From an uncultured Acidobacteriota bacterium (GTDB lineage Bacteria > Acidobacteriota > JAQAZP01), in contig CAWIIB010000009.1 of NCBI GenBank assembly GCA_963836075.1, positions 2,880,001-2,944,000 of the forward strand: a stretch of 64,000 nt of DNA, read 5' to 3'. The notes under the pieces were generated by a model. That model ran no database searches, had not been told where the DNA came from, and was given only the letters and a program-made list of their open reading frames with translations. The translations under genes were made by a program, and so were the position numbers. This document shows, one piece after another, positions 26,878 to 34,258 of this stretch (position 1 is its first letter; each line of letters begins with the position of its first letter).

Positions 26878-27489
26878 ATGGGCCAGATGGAAATCGAAGT
26901 GAAATACATCCTCCCCGGGGGCGCCGTGGAGGCGGACCGTCTGGCCCGGCGGATCGCCGGGCTGGCCGGTGCCGGGGGAGGGGAGCCGCAAGCGGGCCCC
27001 CGGCATTTCGAGGACAACTACCTCCTCGACTACCCGGGCACTCCCATCCGCCGCCAGGGGTGCGGTTTCCGGCTGCGCCTGACCCCGCTGGCCGACACCC
27101 TTACCTGGAAGGGGCCGGCACGGCCCGACCCCCGGCTGAAGATTCGAGAGGAGATCGAGGTGGGCATCGCCGGGGGGCGGGCCCTGCTGACCATCCTCGA
27201 GCGGATCGGCCTGCGGGTCATTTTCCGCTATCAGAAGTTCAGGCAGGCCTTCCCGCTGGCCGGGGGGCTGACCGCGGTGATCGACGAGACGCCCTTCGGC
27301 TGGTTCACCGAACTGGAGGGCCCCCCGGAAGAGATCGAGCGGGTCAGCCACCTGCTGGAACTGGACCCGGCGAACCACGTCCGGGCCAGTTATGCGGGAT
27401 ATTTTGTCATGGAGCTCGAACGCCAGGGGCGGAAGGGGGAGACTGAGGTGCTGTTTCCTCCGCAGCGTCTGGAGAAGGAAGAGACGTGA
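26878..27489 (+). CDS. CYTH domain protein (class IV adenylate cyclase/triphosphate tunnel metalloenzyme)
   Basis: EIEVK (ExExK), RLR, LTWKGP, REEIE, YQKFR, DETPFG.F.ELEG. Confidence 0.88.
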   Translation: MGQMEIEVKYILPGGAVEADRLARRIAGLAGAGGGEPQAGPRHFEDNYLLDYPGTPIRRQGCGFRLRLTPLADTLTWKGPARPDPRLKIREEIEVGIAGGRALLTILERIGLRVIFRYQKFRQAFPLAGGLTAVIDETPFGWFTELEGPPEEIERVSHLLELDPANHVRASYAGYFVMELERQGRKGETEVLFPPQRLEKEET

Positions 27490-28562
27490 GCACGGCGACC
27501 ACGGCGATGATCCTCGCGGCCGGCCTGGGCACGCGGATGGACCCGCTGACCCGCCAGCGGGCCAAGCCGGCTCTGCGTCTCTTTGACCTGCCGCTGATCG
27601 CCTGGCCCATGGCCTTTCTGGCCCGCTGCGGGGTCAAGCGTCTGGTGGTCAATTTGCACCACCTTCCCGGCACCCTGGAGCCGGAGCTGGTCCGCTTTTC
27701 ACGCCGGCTGGGGCTTCACCTGACCCTCTCCCGTGAAGAGGATGAAATCCTCGGCACCGGGGGCGGCCTCGGCGCGGCCGCTTCACAACTGCTGGAAGCC
27801 GGCCCATCAACCATGCTGCTGCTCAACGCCGACTCCCTCTTTTTCGGCGATCTGGCCGCGGCGGGCGAGGCGCACCGGGCCGGCGGGGCGGAAGCCTCGA
27901 TGCTGCTCCAGCCGCCCCCGCCGGGGGGGCGCTATGGCCTGGTGCAGACGGACAGTGAGGGCCGGGTGGTCTCCATTGCCGGCAAGCCGGCGCCGCCGGC
28001 GCCGCCGGCCGCGGAGTGGATGTTCGTCGGCATCCACTTTTTCGAACCGGCTTTGCTGCGGCGGATTCCGGCGGGCCGGGCGGTGGATATCAACGCCGAC
28101 GTCTACCGCGGGATGATCGGCGGGGGGGAGACGGTGCGGGGACTCCCGGTGAGCGGCTCCTGGCTCGATTTCGGCACGCCGCGGACCTTTCTGCGCAGTG
28201 CCCTGGCCCTGCTGGACGATGGCGCAGCGGGCGGCGATCTCTTTCCGCTGCCGCTGGAGCTGCCGGGCCGGTTCGATTCTGCCGCGCCGGCCTACCTGGG
28301 GCCTGATGCTCGCGTCTCTCCTGAAGCCCGGCTGCGACGGGCCGCGGTGGGTGGGGAGAGCGTGGTGGGGGACGGCTGCGCGCTCACCAGCAGCCTGCTG
28401 ATGGAGGGCTGCCGGCTGGGCCGTGAGGTGCACCTCGAGGAGTGCCTGGTGGGTCCGGGCACGGTGCTGCCCCACCATTTCTCCGCCCGGGGGGAACTGC
28501 TCAGCCAGGCCGGGGCGGGCGGGATGCCGGAACGCCGGCCGCTGGGAGGGAGTGTGGGGTGA
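27486..28562 (+). CDS. Sugar-phosphate nucleotidyltransferase (MurU/mannose-1-P guanylyltransferase-like, C-terminal LbH)
   Basis: MILAAGLGTRM.PLT...AKPA, NLHH, E.EILGTGGG, NAD and W.DFGTP. Confidence 0.85.
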   Translation: MSTATTAMILAAGLGTRMDPLTRQRAKPALRLFDLPLIAWPMAFLARCGVKRLVVNLHHLPGTLEPELVRFSRRLGLHLTLSREEDEILGTGGGLGAAASQLLEAGPSTMLLLNADSLFFGDLAAAGEAHRAGGAEASMLLQPPPPGGRYGLVQTDSEGRVVSIAGKPAPPAPPAAEWMFVGIHFFEPALLRRIPAGRAVDINADVYRGMIGGGETVRGLPVSGSWLDFGTPRTFLRSALALLDDGAAGGDLFPLPLELPGRFDSAAPAYLGPDARVSPEARLRRAAVGGESVVGDGCALTSSLLMEGCRLGREVHLEECLVGPGTVLPHHFSARGELLSQAGAGGMPERRPLGGSVG

Positions 28563-29560
28563 CCGATATGCCATCCGACCTGTCACCACGGACCGTCCGA
28601 GGGCTGGCCCGTCTCGGCCGGCCGGCTGCCGGCTGGGCACGGCTGGCCGGAGATGCCTCGGTGCGGCGGTTCTACCGCCGGGCCGCGGCGTCCGGGTCCC
28701 CGCCGGAAATCCTGATGGACACCGGTGAGCCGTTTGTGGAGGGCCAGGACCCTTTCTGTCTCACCGCCCGTTTCCTGGAGCAGCATCGCCTGCCGGTGCC
28801 GGAGGTCCGGGCGGTGGACGGGGAGGCCGGCCTGGTGCTGCTGGAGGACCTGGGTGACCGCACCCTGGAGAGCTGCTTCCCCGAAGTGCGGAGGGAGCGT
28901 CTCTACGAGGCCGCGGTGGACCTGCTCTGCGACCTCCAGTCCCTCGACGCCGGGCAGCTTCCTCACCGGCTCCCGGCCCGCCGGCTCTTTTTCGACGAAA
29001 AGAAGCTCCTTTGGGAGCTGCACTTCTTTCACCGCAATTTCTTCGGCGGCCTGCTGGGCCTGACCCTGCCAACCGTGGAGGAGGACGCGCTGCAGGAGTT
29101 CTACCGGCACCTCTGCTCCCGGTTGGCCGGATTGCGGCCCCGGGTTTTTTGTCACCGCGACTACCACAGCCGCAACCTGATGGTCACCGGGGACCGGCTG
29201 GTGATGGTGGACTTCCAGGATGCCCGTCTGGGGCCGGAGACCTATGACCTGGTGTCACTGCTCAGGGACTGCTACGTGGAGCTGGGGGAGGAGTTGGAGC
29301 GCCGCCTGATCGGCCGCTATCTCCGGCAGCGGGACCCGGCGGCCGAGGGGGAGGAGTTCCAGCAGCGCTTCGAACTCACTGCCCTGCAGCGGGGGATCAA
29401 AGCCGCGGGAACGTTTTCCCACCAGGCGGCGGAGCGGGCCAACCGCCGCTACCTGGCCTCCATGCCCCTCACCGCCAGGCACCTCGGCCGGGCCTTTGGC
29501 GCCCTGTCCGAATACGCTGAACCCGGCCGGATCATCCTCTCCCGGCTGGCCACCCTCTGA
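28559..29560 (+). CDS. amgK: Aminoglycoside phosphotransferase-family kinase, AmgK-like anomeric MurNAc/GlcNAc kinase
   Basis: LAGDASVRRFYR, LLEDLGD, HRDYHSRNLM, DFQDARLGP..YDLVSLLRD and QR..KAAGTF. Adjacent to a MurU-like gene. Confidence 0.75.
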   Translation: MTDMPSDLSPRTVRGLARLGRPAAGWARLAGDASVRRFYRRAAASGSPPEILMDTGEPFVEGQDPFCLTARFLEQHRLPVPEVRAVDGEAGLVLLEDLGDRTLESCFPEVRRERLYEAAVDLLCDLQSLDAGQLPHRLPARRLFFDEKKLLWELHFFHRNFFGGLLGLTLPTVEEDALQEFYRHLCSRLAGLRPRVFCHRDYHSRNLMVTGDRLVMVDFQDARLGPETYDLVSLLRDCYVELGEELERRLIGRYLRQRDPAAEGEEFQQRFELTALQRGIKAAGTFSHQAAERANRRYLASMPLTARHLGRAFGALSEYAEPGRIILSRLATL

Positions 29561-29573
29561 AACGGCACGGTAC

Positions 29574-29603
29574 AAAAAAAAGCCGGCCGCCAGTGGCGGC
29601 CGG
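29574..29603 (-). terminator. Intrinsic terminator
   Basis: Minus strand CCGGCCGCCACTGGCGGCCGGC followed by U8. Confidence 0.85.
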
Positions 29604-29668
29604 GTGGGTCAGTGGCATGTTGCAAGGGAGGTTGGTGAGATGATTCCTCTTGCAGCCCGATGCACGTC
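29574..29668 (-). ncRNA. Candidate sigma54-dependent small RNA (~95 nt)
   Basis: Bounded by a sigma54 promoter (29679-29694) and a strong terminator. No credible ORF. Folds into a long hairpin (UGCAAG-AGG...CCU-CC-CUUGCA) plus the terminator. Confidence 0.6.
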
Positions 29669-29678
29669 CACTATCTAT

Positions 29679-29694
29679 AGCAGGTTCCGTGCCA
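29679..29694 (-). promoter_or_regulatory. Sigma54 (-24/-12) promoter
   Basis: Minus strand TGGCAC-GGAAC-CTGCT with exact GG-N10-GC spacing. Confidence 0.65.
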
Positions 29695-29860
29695 CTTTGG
29701 TGATCAGCACCCACCAGGGCCTTACTATCGAAGAAAGTCGTTTGAAATGTGTGCGATGGGTTGCTCCGCGGGCTTCTGGATCAGTGGGGGCGGTCCGCTC
29801 GTGGTGCATGACCTTTTGACACGGCACCGGTCAGTGGTGCCGTTTTGGCACGACAGGACG

Positions 29861-31228
29861 TCATTCACCGTAGCCCAGCGCTCGTAGCTGCTCGCGAACC
29901 ACCGGGTCCTGGAGGGGCAGGTCGCCGGCCGGGGGGACTTCGCTTCCCTCCTGCCAGGCCCGCAGCGTCTGGAGCATCTGCCGGGCCACGGCTTCCTCGC
30001 TGGCGTACAGGTTTTCCGTCTCTCCGGGGTCCAGCGCCAGGTGGAACAGCTCGGGGTCCCCGCCGGCCGAACTGATCAGGTGCCAATCTCCACTGATCAC
30101 CGAGTATTGCTCCCCGGCCAGGAAGGGCCTGGGCGGCCGGGCAAAGGGCCGCCGCTGGCTGATCACCGCCTGCCGGGGTATGGTGCCGCCGGCCATCAAC
30201 GGTTGCAGGGACTGTCCCTCGGTATCCGGCGGGGGCTCCATGCCCAGCAGGTGGAGCAGTGTCGGCATCAGGTCCAGCAGGCTCACCGGTCCCTGGTGCA
30301 GGGCGGCCCCGGTGGAAGCGGGCCCTTCCGGCGCCCTGATCAGCAGCGGGACGGCCAGCTGGTGGTGGTAGAGAAACTCACCGTGGTCAAAGGCGTAAGC
30401 CCGGCGCTGCAGCAGCTCGGCCATCGATTCGCCATGGTCGGCGGTGACGGCGATCAGTGAACGGTGGAACGAACCGTGGCGCCGCATGGCCGCCAGCAGT
30501 CGACCCAGGTTGTGGTCGGCCCAGCCGATTTCGGCATCGTAGGCCGCCACCGTCTTTTCCACCATCTCCTCAGTCACATCACCGGGCCGTCGGAGAAAGG
30601 CGAATTTCAGCGGCAGTTCCAGGGAGGGGACATTGAAGCGGTCCCGGTATTCCTTCGGCGCATGGTAGGGCGTGTGCGGGTCCCAGAGGTGGACCCAGAG
30701 AAAGAACGGTTTTTCGTCCCGGCCGGTCAGCCACTGGATCGCTTCGTCCACCACCTCGCCGGCATCCCGTTCCAGTTCCGGGCCTGAGTAGACCTGGAAC
30801 CCCTGGTCGAGGCCGAACCGGGCGTGGACCGGGAAGGCGCCCACAAAGGCGGCGGTGGCGTATCCGCGGTCGGCCAGCAGTTCGGCCAACGTCACGGCGC
30901 TCTGCGGCAGGACCGCGCCGTTGTTCAGCACGCCGAGGCTTCGCGGGTGGCGGCCGGTGAGCAGGGCGGCGTGGGAGGGGGTGGTTGTGGGCATGGGGCA
31001 GAGGGCATCGAGAAAGAGGTGCCCCGAACGGGCCAGCCGGTCGAGGTGCGGGCTGGTGGGGCGCCGGCAGCCGTAACAGCCCAGGTGGTCGGCCCGCAGG
31101 GTGTCCACGGTGACCAGCAGGACCGGGGTGTCCGGGGCCGGGCCCTGCCGGCTGCAGCCGGAAAGCAGGCTTAAGATCGCCAGCACGAGGCCGGCGCCGC
31201 TGAATACTATCCTTTTCCCGAGGGACAT
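29861..31228 (-). CDS. Sulfatase-like hydrolase/transferase, lipoprotein
   Basis: Lipobox LSGC, VDTLRADHLG.YG, TTPSHAALLTG, DPHTPY, ADHGE and QLRALGYGE. Confidence 0.87.
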   Translation of the reverse strand: MSLGKRIVFSGAGLVLAILSLLSGCSRQGPAPDTPVLLVTVDTLRADHLGCYGCRRPTSPHLDRLARSGHLFLDALCPMPTTTPSHAALLTGRHPRSLGVLNNGAVLPQSAVTLAELLADRGYATAAFVGAFPVHARFGLDQGFQVYSGPELERDAGEVVDEAIQWLTGRDEKPFFLWVHLWDPHTPYHAPKEYRDRFNVPSLELPLKFAFLRRPGDVTEEMVEKTVAAYDAEIGWADHNLGRLLAAMRRHGSFHRSLIAVTADHGESMAELLQRRAYAFDHGEFLYHHQLAVPLLIRAPEGPASTGAALHQGPVSLLDLMPTLLHLLGMEPPPDTEGQSLQPLMAGGTIPRQAVISQRRPFARPPRPFLAGEQYSVISGDWHLISSAGGDPELFHLALDPGETENLYASEEAVARQMLQTLRAWQEGSEVPPAGDLPLQDPVVREQLRALGYGE

Positions 31229-31369
31229 TGGGGCCTCCACAGGTCGTCCGGCAACCTTAATGAGTCGTCGCGACAAAAGTCAAGGTGACTCCGCTGGCCC
31301 GGCCGGTTTACAATTCCCGGGTGGCCGGAGGTTCCGGCAGGTCACCGCGAGCGGGGGGATGGAGGAAGG

Positions 31370-31996
31370 ATGGGCGGTAAGACAAAGAACAGCCGCAGGT
31401 GGCTCCTGGAAGATGAATCGACGCTTCCCCGCGGTGCGCAGTTGCTGCTTCACGTCTGCTGTGCGCCCTGCTCCGCGGGGTCGCTGCGCCGGCTTTGTGA
31501 ACTCTTCCGGGTGACCATGTTTTTCGCCAACTCCAACATCCACCCCGCGGAGGAGTATCGCCGGCGGTTGGATGCCGCCCGCACCCTGGCCGGCAGCCTC
31601 GATGTCCCGCTGCTGGAGGCGGCCTATGAACCCCGCAGCTGGGCCGCCGCCGTGCGCGGGCAGGAAACCGCCCCCGAGGGCGGAGAGCGCTGTGCGTCCT
31701 GCATCAGCATGCGGCTGCGGGTGACTGCCCGCCACGCGGCGGACCAGCGGTTCCCCCTCTTCGCCACCACGCTGACCATCAGCCCGCGCAAGGACCCTGG
31801 GCTGGTCAACCCGGCCGGCCTGGCCGCCGCCGAGGAATTCGGTGTGCGGTTCCTGCGCTGCGACCTGAAGAAGAACGAGGGCTTCCTCGAATCGGTGCGG
31901 GTCAGCCGGGACCTCAACCTCTACCGCCAGCACTACTGCGGCTGCCGCTACAGCCTTCCCGCGGCTGAAAAAAATGCCCCTCCCGATGACGCGTAA
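31370..31996 (+). CDS. queH: Epoxyqueuosine reductase QueH (DUF208)
   Basis: LLHVCCAPCS, NSNIHP.EEY, PEGGERC..C...RL, TTL.ISPRK and YRQ.YCGC.YS. Confidence 0.92.
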   Translation: MGGKTKNSRRWLLEDESTLPRGAQLLLHVCCAPCSAGSLRRLCELFRVTMFFANSNIHPAEEYRRRLDAARTLAGSLDVPLLEAAYEPRSWAAAVRGQETAPEGGERCASCISMRLRVTARHAADQRFPLFATTLTISPRKDPGLVNPAGLAAAEEFGVRFLRCDLKKNEGFLESVRVSRDLNLYRQHYCGCRYSLPAAEKNAPPDDA

Positions 31997-32044: not shown

Positions 32045-34166
32045 TTAGTCCAGACCGAGGCGGGCCACGGTGGTTTTCTCCGCGGCGCCGCCCTTCTGCT
32101 CCTCGGTTATCATCATCGCCGGCCCGTCCAGGGGCGGCGGACCGTCACTGCTCTCCACGGCGATGGGCCCCAGGGCCACGCGGGCGCCGTAGCGGTTGTT
32201 CTCGCCGTAGGCCAGGATGTCCAGGCCGGCGATGGGCTCCAGGACCTCGCCGTCATAATTCCAGCCCAGCACCCGTGCCGTGAAGTCCACGTCCGGCCCC
32301 GGCCCGGTGACGATCTCGTCGATGCCGTCACCGTCGACGTCACCGCAGGCCACGACGACCCCGAAGCGGTACTCCTCACTCGTCTCGTAGGCGTTGAAGT
32401 TCACGCCGCTGATCGGGGTCAGCACGTCGCCGTCGTAGTTGAAGGCGCGGACGTGGGAGCCGAACAGTTCGCCCGGTCCCGGCCCGGTGATGATCTCGTC
32501 GATGCCGTCGCCGTCGATGTCGCCGCAGGCCACGTTGACCCCGAACTTCATGGTGTTGTAGGCCATGAAGCTGACTCCGGGGATCGACTCCAGTTGCGAA
32601 CCGTCGTAGTTGAAGGCGCGGACGTGGGGACCGAACACGTCGCCCGGGCCCGCCCCGGTGATGATCTCGTCGATGCCGTCGCCGTCGATGTCGCCGCAGG
32701 CCACGTTGGCCCCGTACTTCAGGGTGCCGTAGGCGAAGAAGTTGATCGCCGGGTTCGGTTCGAAGAGGGTGGACCCGTCAAAGTCCCAGGCCCGGATGTG
32801 CGGGCCGAACACCGCGCCGGGGCCCGGCGAGGTGAGGATCTCGTCCACGTTGTCGCCGTCGATGTCGCCGGCGGCGCACTTGGCGCCGAACTTCAGCGTG
32901 CCGTAAGCAAAGAAGCTGTTGTGGATCGCCTGGCCCCGGTCGTCAAAGACCCGGATCTGCGGGCCGAACACCTCGCCCGGACCCGGTCCGGTGAGGATCT
33001 CGATCCGCCCGTCGCCGGTGACGTCGCCGGCGCTGACGTTGACGCCCCACTTGTTGACCCCGTAGGCCATGAATTCGAGGCCGTGGACCATTTCGCCGGT
33101 GGCCGGATCGAAGACACGGACCTTCGGCGCGTTGGCCGGGCCGGGGCCCGGGCCGGTGATGATCATCGCCGGGATCGGGCCAAAGGCCACGGTGGCCTGC
33201 TGAGTGATGGCCACCCCGCCGGCCACGGCGCTGACCTGGGCCTCGGTCACGTCGGTGGACGACTGCAGCTGCTGGCTGTAGGTCCCGTCGCCGTGGTCCA
33301 CCACGGAGCCCAGCAGCGAGCCGGCCGTGGTTTCCAGAGTCACCACGAGGCCCGGCCCCACCAGCTCCAGGGATGAGTCGAGCGGAGTGACGGTGATCAG
33401 CGATACGCTGGCGCCGTCCGCCGGGATTTCCTCCGGGTTCGCCGTCACCGTGGTGGCTGTCCGGATCCACCGGCGGCGCGCCGGCCAGCACTTCCAGGAG
33501 TGCGCTGTCACTGAAGTGGCAGGCGATGGTGCCGTTGTCGTCGAGGGCCACCACCCGGATCTGGTAGATGCCGGGGCCTTCGAGTTGGCCGGCATTCACC
33601 ACCCTGGTGCCCGCGGGGCTGTCCAGCAGGGTTGAACTGGAGTAGCAGCAGTTGTCCGGATCCCACTCGGCGCCGTTGGGGTTGGAGAAGGAGCCGCCGA
33701 CCTTGCTCACCTCCAGGCCGGCCGAGGCAGCGCCCTCGAAACCAGAGACGTCCCAGGAGAGCTCGAAGAGCGGGCTGGAGAGGGAGACCAGGTCCGGGTT
33801 GAGCAGCGGCATGTCGGCCTCGCCGTCCCAGGGGACCACGGTGGCCGAGGCGACGTTGGAGTGCACGCTGTAGTTGTAGCTGGTGTCGTAGGCCATCACC
33901 ACGAAGTAGTAGGTGGTGCCCACGGCCAGGCCGGTGACATCCTGGAGAACCGCTTCGGGATCGGGCACGTCGACCCGGTCGGGGAAAGTGACCCCGTTGG
34001 TGCCGTACTTCACCCGGTAGCCGGCCAGATCGTCGGCCAGGACCGTATCCCACTGCACCTGCAGGGTGCCGGCCCGGGCCTGGGACAGGGGGGCAAGCAG
34101 GAAAACCACGGTCAGGGCCGCGGACATGAACACGAGAAGATGACGATTAATACTGGTTGTGGACAT
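32045..34166 (-). CDS. Secreted surface protein: FN3 + Ig/invasin-like + FG-GAP-like repeat propeller; +1 frameshift near 33460
   Basis: Signal peptide, DLAGYRVKYGT...GTTYYFVVMAYD (FN3), IPADG.S...ITVT (Big_1-like) and five GDxDGDGxDEI.TGPGPG repeats. Confidence 0.82.
32160..33170 (-). repeat. Five intragenic FG-GAP-like tandem repeats (period about 160-180 bp)
   Basis: GATCTCG(T)C...GCCGTC units recur near 32311, 32491, 32662, 32836 and 32995. Confidence 0.8.
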
Positions 34167-34242
34167 CTTCGCACCGCCTTTCGTTCAGATGTCGTTCTGG
34201 CGCCACCGGGGGCGCCGCCTTTTTTATCCACCCCCCTTGCAG

Positions 34243-34258
34243 AGCAACGGCCGTACCA
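34243..34258 (-). promoter_or_regulatory. Sigma54 (-24/-12) promoter of the FN3/FG-GAP gene
   Basis: Minus strand TGGTAC-GGCCG-TTGCT, about 75 bp upstream of ATG 34166, with an AT-rich tract further upstream. Confidence 0.68.

Follow-up and report, generated by a model that had tools for sequence, protein, structure and literature searches.

Locus and Features

The DNA analyzed here is a 64-kb stretch from an uncultured Acidobacteriota bacterium (the window), and our subject is a short unit that sits between two convergent genes, namely, a PF00884 sulfatase gene on the minus strand (29861-31276) and a PF01636 APH-family kinase gene on the plus strand (28442-29560). An earlier note on this DNA had reported a minus-strand TGGCAC-N5-CTGCT motif followed, about 95 nt on, by a GC-rich hairpin with a U8 tail, and had proposed that the two delimit a stand-alone, trans-acting small RNA (sRNA). 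Both the motif, which reads TGGCACGGAACCTGCT at 29694-29679, and the hairpin, which has a 9-bp, all-GC stem and lies with its tail at 29603-29574, are present as described. The features discussed below are as follows.

29679-29694, minus strand: sigma-54-type promoter with −24 TGGCAC and −12 CTGCT, from motif and conservation
29574-29668, minus strand: predicted small RNA of about 95 nt, with its 5′ end placed at roughly 29665-29672, from conservation and contigs
29614-29657, minus strand: stem-loop 1 (RNA positions 12-55), predicted in the minimum free energy (MFE) and centroid folds
29630-29644, minus strand: 15-nt apical loop AUCAUCUCACCAACC, a candidate seed, with a mean P(unpaired) of 0.99
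29574-29603, minus strand: predicted intrinsic terminator with a 9-bp GC stem, a 3-nt loop, and then C and U8, from sequence; invariant in three genomes
29807-29853, no strand: conserved palindromic block, a candidate site for an activator (bacterial enhancer-binding protein [bEBP]), from conservation, with a putative function
29731-29747, no strand: semiconserved A/T-rich patch, possibly a DNA-bending (IHF-type) site, with eight invariant alignment columns

The neighborhood has further features of its own. On the plus strand, an NTP_transferase gene (PF00483) and the APH-family kinase gene (PF01636) adjoin at 27486-29560, a pair that presumably resembles MurU/AmgK-type sugar-1-phosphate recycling enzymes; their longest open reading frames (ORFs) overlap by about 120 nt, and the kinase therefore probably starts later than its longest ORF. 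A 516-aa protein encoded on the minus strand at 32045-33595 has Invasin_D3 and FG-GAP repeat matches and is a probable surface or secreted adhesin-like protein. Finally, the segment at 33558-34258 (minus strand) recurs in the same genome at C9:2202398-2203098, with 99.86% identity over at least 701 nt. The identity starts about 2 nt ahead of a sigma-54-like site, TGGTACGGCCGTTGCT, and each copy holds a gene for a signal-peptide protein about 95 nt after that site; the two copies look like a recent duplication of a promoter and its gene.

Promoter Motif and Sigma-54 Machinery

The predicted promoter has the canonical sigma-54 layout GG-N10-GC, with GG at −24, GC at −12, and the exact spacing of the TGGCAC-N5-TTGCW type; the C of its −12 GC falls at 29680, which predicts a +1 position near 29668. 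Its −12 element is CTGC, for which TTGC is the commoner form. CTGC at −12 is also used by other plausible local sigma-54 sites, and the extended TGGCACGG is common to several local sigma-54-like sites. The pattern TGGCAC-N5-YTGCW matches once in the 64-kb window, compared with 0.10 matches expected from shuffles, and 10 of 100 shuffled windows hold at least one match. Taken by itself, the motif is weak evidence, being only mildly unusual. Genome-wide, the pattern occurs 35 times with the N5 spacer, compared with 15, 3, 9, and 11 times for N3, N4, N6, and N7, respectively. No sigma-70-like promoter was found in 29000-30400.

A looser sigma-54 pattern picks out 86 sites in the genome, most of the intergenic ones standing 5′ of a gene on the same strand. 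A loose terminator finder run on all 86 flagged 6, 3 of which are intergenic. Of these, only the window sRNA site combines a convergent next gene with a strong hairpin that lies fewer than 100 nt downstream; the two remaining intergenic sites that were flagged show weak hairpins, at +262 (C1:16220) and +207 (C9:305523). The latter site (TGGCATGCACTTTGCT at C9:305523-305538 on the minus strand, with a weak hairpin and T-run about 207 to 224 nt downstream) has its next gene on the opposite strand and is possibly a second noncoding unit. Another site with both motif and terminator, at C1:432947, was rejected because it falls within the 3′ end of a coding gene.

The sigma-54 machinery is encoded in the same genome: there is RpoN (one PF04552 match, 226.9 bits), and there are enhancer-binding activators (43 PF00158 matches, of which 37 score more than 130 bits). 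No activator gene lies near the sRNA locus. Hfq is likewise encoded (PF17209, 93.7 bits, C1:139560-139742), and ProQ was not found in the genome, which is 94.7% complete.

Conservation and Distribution

When the window's own genome (G000) is aligned with two genomes of the same genus (G001 and G002), near-identity sets in at the T of TGGCAC and stops just past the U-tract. Identities to G000 are as follows.

RNA body, 29574-29668, minus strand: G002, 95/95; G001, 91/95
Promoter, 29669-29694, minus strand: G002, 25/26; G001, 24/26
Kinase gene, 28442-29560, plus strand: G002, 79.5%; G001, 76.9%
Third codon positions of the kinase gene: G002, 65%; G001, 68%
Spacer upstream of the promoter: G002, 42%; G001, 51%

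The promoter elements carry one change in G001 (G to A at 29687). Promoter and hairpin, the conservation of which had been put forward as a check on the sRNA claim, are thus both conserved in two same-genus genomes. Metagenome contigs extend this picture. Contigs from four runs were compared, two of DNA (X11 and X14) and two of RNA (X19 and X20). The X14 contig matches 29574-29694 only, with one difference, and resembles the window on neither flank; the X11 contig spans 29480-29900 (421 nt) with 18 differences, and none of the 15 that are listed lies within the RNA or the −24/−12 elements. More broadly, parts of the stretch are present in 20 listed public runs from 12 studies, mostly sediment metagenomes. 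On the strength of these alignments, we consider it confirmed that this is a discrete, strongly conserved unit bounded by a sigma-54 motif and a predicted terminator.

Could a promoter-like motif and a terminator simply have come together by chance in an intergenic region? The motif does turn up at least once in 10 of the 100 shuffled windows, but conservation this sharp, far above that of the flanking coding sequence and seen in three genomes and two metagenome contigs, already disfavors coincidence, which we regard as extremely unlikely.

The element is present in a single copy in its own genome and, among 41 relatives (own genome included), turned up elsewhere only in the two same-genus genomes. 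A covariance model (R1) scored about 170 bits for the three genus genomes and at most 24 bits elsewhere among 151 phylum genomes; the weak matches outside the genus were rejected, being terminators, a gene end, or a match that carries a tRNA-like T-loop motif. A promoter-plus-loop pattern matched 3 of 401 phylum genomes. No homologue outside the genus was found in the phylum genomes sampled (151 by R1 and 401 by pattern), and the alignments and model scores suggest that the element is probably restricted to one lineage, as far as sampled.

R1 matched none of seven pattern-derived loci, four of which (L040, L041, L044, and L045) were considered individually. L041, with its promoter in front of a gene, and L044 and L045, which have no terminator, were rejected as relatives. 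L040 (425-577, minus strand) is a contig of a Thermoanaerobaculia MAG in which a sigma-54-like TGGCACGGATGCTGCA is followed by 72 nt, CATCgCACCAACCTCCC, a strong terminator-like hairpin, and then ATG. It has a 12-mer in common with the window element, and in L040 the motif falls in a stem. As a relative, L040 is unsupported, given the lack of an R1 match and its absence from 40 genome relatives save for one weak match of 41 bits; it could be a leader, an attenuator, or a product of chance.

Upstream Neighbor and Candidate Activator Site

In G001 and G002, the upstream neighbor of the sRNA unit is not the sulfatase gene; it is a divergent queH gene (PF02677) that is 76 to 81% identical to the window's queH at 31370-31996. 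This arrangement bears on a scenario that the earlier note had named as one that would undo its proposal, namely, that the terminator merely ends read-through from the upstream gene. The two relatives have no codirectional gene upstream, and the terminator therefore cannot serve only that purpose; judging from gene order, read-through does not explain it, and the scenario falls away.

The sulfatase gene (29861-31276) is present in G000 alone of the three genomes: tblastn with its protein finds nothing at the syntenic loci of G001 and G002, where queH directly adjoins the sRNA unit. Either the gene was inserted in G000 or the other two genomes lost it. In the G000 alignment, it splits a palindromic block (29807-29853) from a queH-proximal segment with a conserved TACAAT element, and the block keeps with the sRNA despite being parted from queH.

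This block consists of GTGCC-N5-GGCAC overlapping GGCACC-N7-GGTGCC and lies about 115 to 160 bp upstream of the −24 element. Its identity is 42/47 in G002 and 36/47 in G001, compared with 42 to 51% for the adjoining spacer, and a separate X14 metagenome contig matches 29807-29866. Based on this conservation, the block may be an activator binding site. Genome-wide, one palindrome is found 7 times and the other 4 times, and it is only here that they stand near a sigma-54-like site; the idea that they mark a set of coregulated promoters was dropped, since the genome search found none at other sigma-54 sites. Between block and promoter, the A/T-rich patch at 29731-29747 (positions 154 to 170 of the first sequence in the alignment) could, by analogy with the glmY promoter (PMC3045617), be an IHF-type bending site, a possible but weak assignment.

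RNA Anatomy and Coding Potential

The 95-nt transcript is predicted to fold at −36.4 kcal/mol (z = −3.6), and only 1 of 200 shuffles is equally stable. The predicted structure comprises a 12-bp interrupted stem, a 15-nt loop (AUCAUCUCACCAACC), a C-rich linker, and the terminator. Of the fold that had been drawn previously, the long hairpin stands, while the register was slightly off: in the MFE structure, GGA pairs with UCC, which leaves the 15-nt loop. The loop is invariant across the three genomes at 14 of its 15 positions. None of the four G001 changes in the RNA, at positions 1, 2, 21 (bulge), and 26 (loop), touches a paired base of the fold, and the G001 variant adopts the same structure at the same −36.4 kcal/mol. 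Covariation in related genomes, which had been proposed as a check, proved uninformative; none of the 32 pairs in the predicted stems varies on both sides, the three close genomes offering too little variation.

The terminator stem (29603-29583) consists of nine G-C pairs about 65 nt past the predicted start, and the T8 run extends to 29574. On the plus strand, no U-run follows the hairpin, which therefore looks like a terminator on the minus strand alone.

Is the RNA a message? The sole closed sense ORF of at least 12 aa is one of 18 aa that starts with GTG at 29665; in G000 it amounts to 20 aa from an upstream GTG, and it is closed in all three genomes. That the ORF is kept in this way is what a very small protein would lead one to expect. 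Nonetheless, its GTG lies at or beside the predicted 5′ end, the nearest GAGG is 2 to 3 nt upstream and so too close to serve as a Shine-Dalgarno (SD) sequence, and the only two internal substitutions, both in G001, are nonsynonymous changes, R to S and I to N, at sites that are unpaired in the RNA. A small protein is thus very improbable here, and, as the earlier note had held, the sequence between promoter and hairpin appears to contain no credible ORF.

The claim that the RNA belongs to no known family also holds. A scan of the whole window with Rfam 15 at gathering thresholds gave no matches, and at E values of up to 10, there were terminator-level matches only. The best subthreshold match, Hrs13, scored 21.0 bits against a threshold of 52 and aligns with essentially the terminator alone. 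A tRNA/tmRNA scan found none. The unit is intergenic and noncoding and ends in a predicted intrinsic terminator with a U8 tail, which are the attributes of an Hfq-type sRNA.

Transcript Evidence

One of the two RNA runs, the metatranscriptome X19, holds a 206-nt contig that covers 29570-29665 with two differences. On its 5′ side, the contig has 7 further letters beyond 29665, which do not align to the promoter, and at the other side it runs 103 nt beyond the terminator into unlike sequence. The contig ends about 4 to 7 nt from the predicted start, and contigs of this kind define neither ends nor strand; the contig could also be DNA carried in the RNA library. It gives a weak indication, from an RNA library, that a 5′ end lies close to the predicted start. 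The second RNA run, X20, has no contig matching the stretch.

These data leave some room for the idea that the conserved block acts at the level of DNA, as a kinase terminator or 3′ stabilizer together with protein-binding sites, without giving rise to a stable regulatory RNA. The direct transcript evidence is that one contig, possibly DNA, and the hairpin begins 22 nt after the stop codon of the kinase gene (29560). Such a DNA element, however, would not account for two observations, namely, that some 70 nt between the hairpin and the consensus sigma-54 motif are conserved almost perfectly and that conservation has its edge at TGGCAC; for the kinase gene, moreover, the U-run lies on the wrong side. 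We consider it improbable. In our view, a short noncoding gene with its own promoter and terminator, almost unchanged in relatives, is therefore probably a real, if ordinary, regulatory sRNA.

The Loop and Its Possible Targets

What would such an RNA pair with? The earlier note had pointed to an ACCUCCC segment complementary to ribosome-binding sites (RBSs). The segment is present; its UCCC part lies in the stem of the predicted fold, where CUCCC has a mean P(unpaired) of only 0.23, compared with 0.99 for the loop, and the anti-SD reading is therefore weakened. The loop plus the adjacent UCCC has as its reverse complement GGGAGG-UUGGUGAG-AUG, i.e., an SD sequence, an 8-nt spacer, and a start codon. 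RsaE/RoxS-type sRNAs mask SD sequences with C-rich loops, and the window RNA is like them in having unpaired C-rich stretches (the loop CACCAACC plus UCCC and the linker CCCACCC) complementary to G-rich RBSs. It is unlike them in that it has no Rfam match, another promoter type, and a C-rich segment that is partly paired; by analogy, the resemblance may serve only as a lead.

Target prediction, another of the checks that had been proposed, did not single out any mRNA. No long perfect site was found anywhere else in the genome. The real loop gave 80 regions with duplex energies of −24 kcal/mol or lower, compared with 25 to 142 for seven shuffled loops, and 8 matches to 10-mer seeds in the 5′ regions of genes, compared with a shuffled mean of 4.8 (range, 0 to 14). 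A site at C9:2104217-2104561, ranked 34 of 4,084, was set aside as unsupported, since the predictions are no better than shuffles. For the proposal of a stand-alone, trans-acting sRNA, then, the discrete conserved unit is borne out, and the targets do not rise above shuffled controls.

The missing target enrichment is one reason to consider an RNA that is real and sigma-54 driven but does not mask RBSs in trans and acts instead by protein titration, as a sponge, or in cis as an antisense RNA to kinase read-through transcripts. Just 14 nt separate the kinase stop codon from the end of the sRNA gene, and on the plus strand the hairpin has no U-tract; furthermore, all three genomes keep the sRNA linked to the kinase gene, and it is the neighbor on the other side that changes. 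That linkage is weak evidence, however, given that the three genomes are close. Multiple GGA motifs are a family trait of CsrB/RsmZ, and the single GGA of the window RNA is unlike that build. Moreover, an invariant, open 15-nt loop, a U8 terminator, and a genomic Hfq fit a base-pairing sRNA. We judge an RNA that acts in one of these other ways to be rather unlikely, and we favor a base-pairing sRNA.

Proposed Mechanism

In total, we posit a new, stand-alone sigma-54 noncoding transcription unit giving a base-pairing sRNA that blocks the translation of mRNA, a reading to which we assign a probability of roughly 0.6. In this model, a bEBP would bind the palindromic block about 115 to 160 bp upstream of the −24 element, and the bound activator would switch on sigma-54 RNA polymerase at TGGCAC-N5-CTGCT. 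Transcription would then yield an RNA of about 90 to 95 nt that ends at the intrinsic terminator and is predicted to consist of one long hairpin, whose 15-nt loop is fully accessible, followed by a C-rich linker and the terminator hairpin with its U8 tail. This layout would fit the usual build of an Hfq-type base-pairing sRNA. Most likely, the loop would pair with the ribosome-binding regions of one or more mRNAs and thereby block their translation, and, with a 3-bp helix opened, CUCCC could join in the pairing. We infer transcription from the sRNA promoter, the activator site, the use of Hfq, the base-pairing mode, and every target.

A more far-reaching version can be imagined, in which a dedicated circuit of one bEBP, sigma-54, and a single sRNA operates in uncultured sediment Acidobacteriota, where the sRNA would be a broad RBS mask on a strongly translated class of mRNAs and environmentally widespread. 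The loop plus UCCC mirrors a complete RBS, and a broad mask, as opposed to a single target, is therefore possible; the presence of parts of the stretch in the public runs would make the RNA a widespread regulator if the circuit is real. We speculate along these lines only tentatively and hold this version to be possible but doubtful.

Relation to Known sRNAs

Stand-alone sigma-54 sRNAs are already well known. GlmY and GlmZ are two of them, and Qrr and CrcZ are further sigma-54-dependent sRNAs. The layout of the window unit matches this class, and the unit has the defining features of none of its families.

In the Enterobacteriaceae, GlmY and GlmZ are stand-alone sRNAs dependent on sigma-54 and GlrR, with conserved activator sites upstream and a site for a bending protein between (PMC3045617). 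The window locus is alike in its sigma-54 motif, its upstream conserved block, and the A/T-rich patch between. The GlrR consensus, TGTC-N10-GACA (PMC3045617), is absent from 29695-29860, where the block has a single TGTC, with GCAC in place of GACA 10 nt farther on. The window sRNA does not combine three GlrR sites with the GlmY/GlmZ fold, has no Rfam match, and, unlike GlmY/GlmZ, has no overlapping sigma-70 promoter. In addition, GlmY is a protein decoy, whereas the window RNA appears to be built like a base-pairing sRNA.

Pxr of the Myxococcales is a lineage-restricted intergenic sRNA of about 108 nt with a predicted sigma-54 promoter and stable stem-loops (PMC5568312). The window sRNA is like Pxr in being lineage restricted, as far as sampled, and intergenic and in having a predicted sigma-54 promoter. 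Pxr lies downstream of the neighboring sigma-54 response-regulator gene nla19 and has two or three stem-loops (PMC5568312); by comparison, the window sRNA has no adjacent activator gene and is predicted to have one hairpin plus the terminator.

For Desulfovibrio vulgaris, PMC4641369 places four noncoding RNAs in bEBP/sigma-54 regulons and indicates that regulators of noncoding RNAs tend toward free-living species. This activator-rich, free-living anaerobe offers another instance of noncoding RNA under sigma-54; the phylum differs, and our comparison was made by description and Rfam.

Implications

Beyond a handful of well-studied phyla, hardly any regulatory RNAs are known. In a review (PMC9029176), a table of annotated sRNAs counts 4 for Acidobacteria and 345 for Proteobacteria, and our search of the literature, covering main texts as opposed to supplements, found no description of a sigma-54 sRNA in Acidobacteria. 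The sRNA posited here would add an example to a known class and would leave the concept unchanged. The system that it addresses is sigma-54 signaling in activator-rich, uncultured sediment bacteria, and this candidate, whose limits are clear, whose promoter class is predicted, and which has a putative activator site and an evident seed, may offer an entry point to the output of sigma-54 in these organisms.
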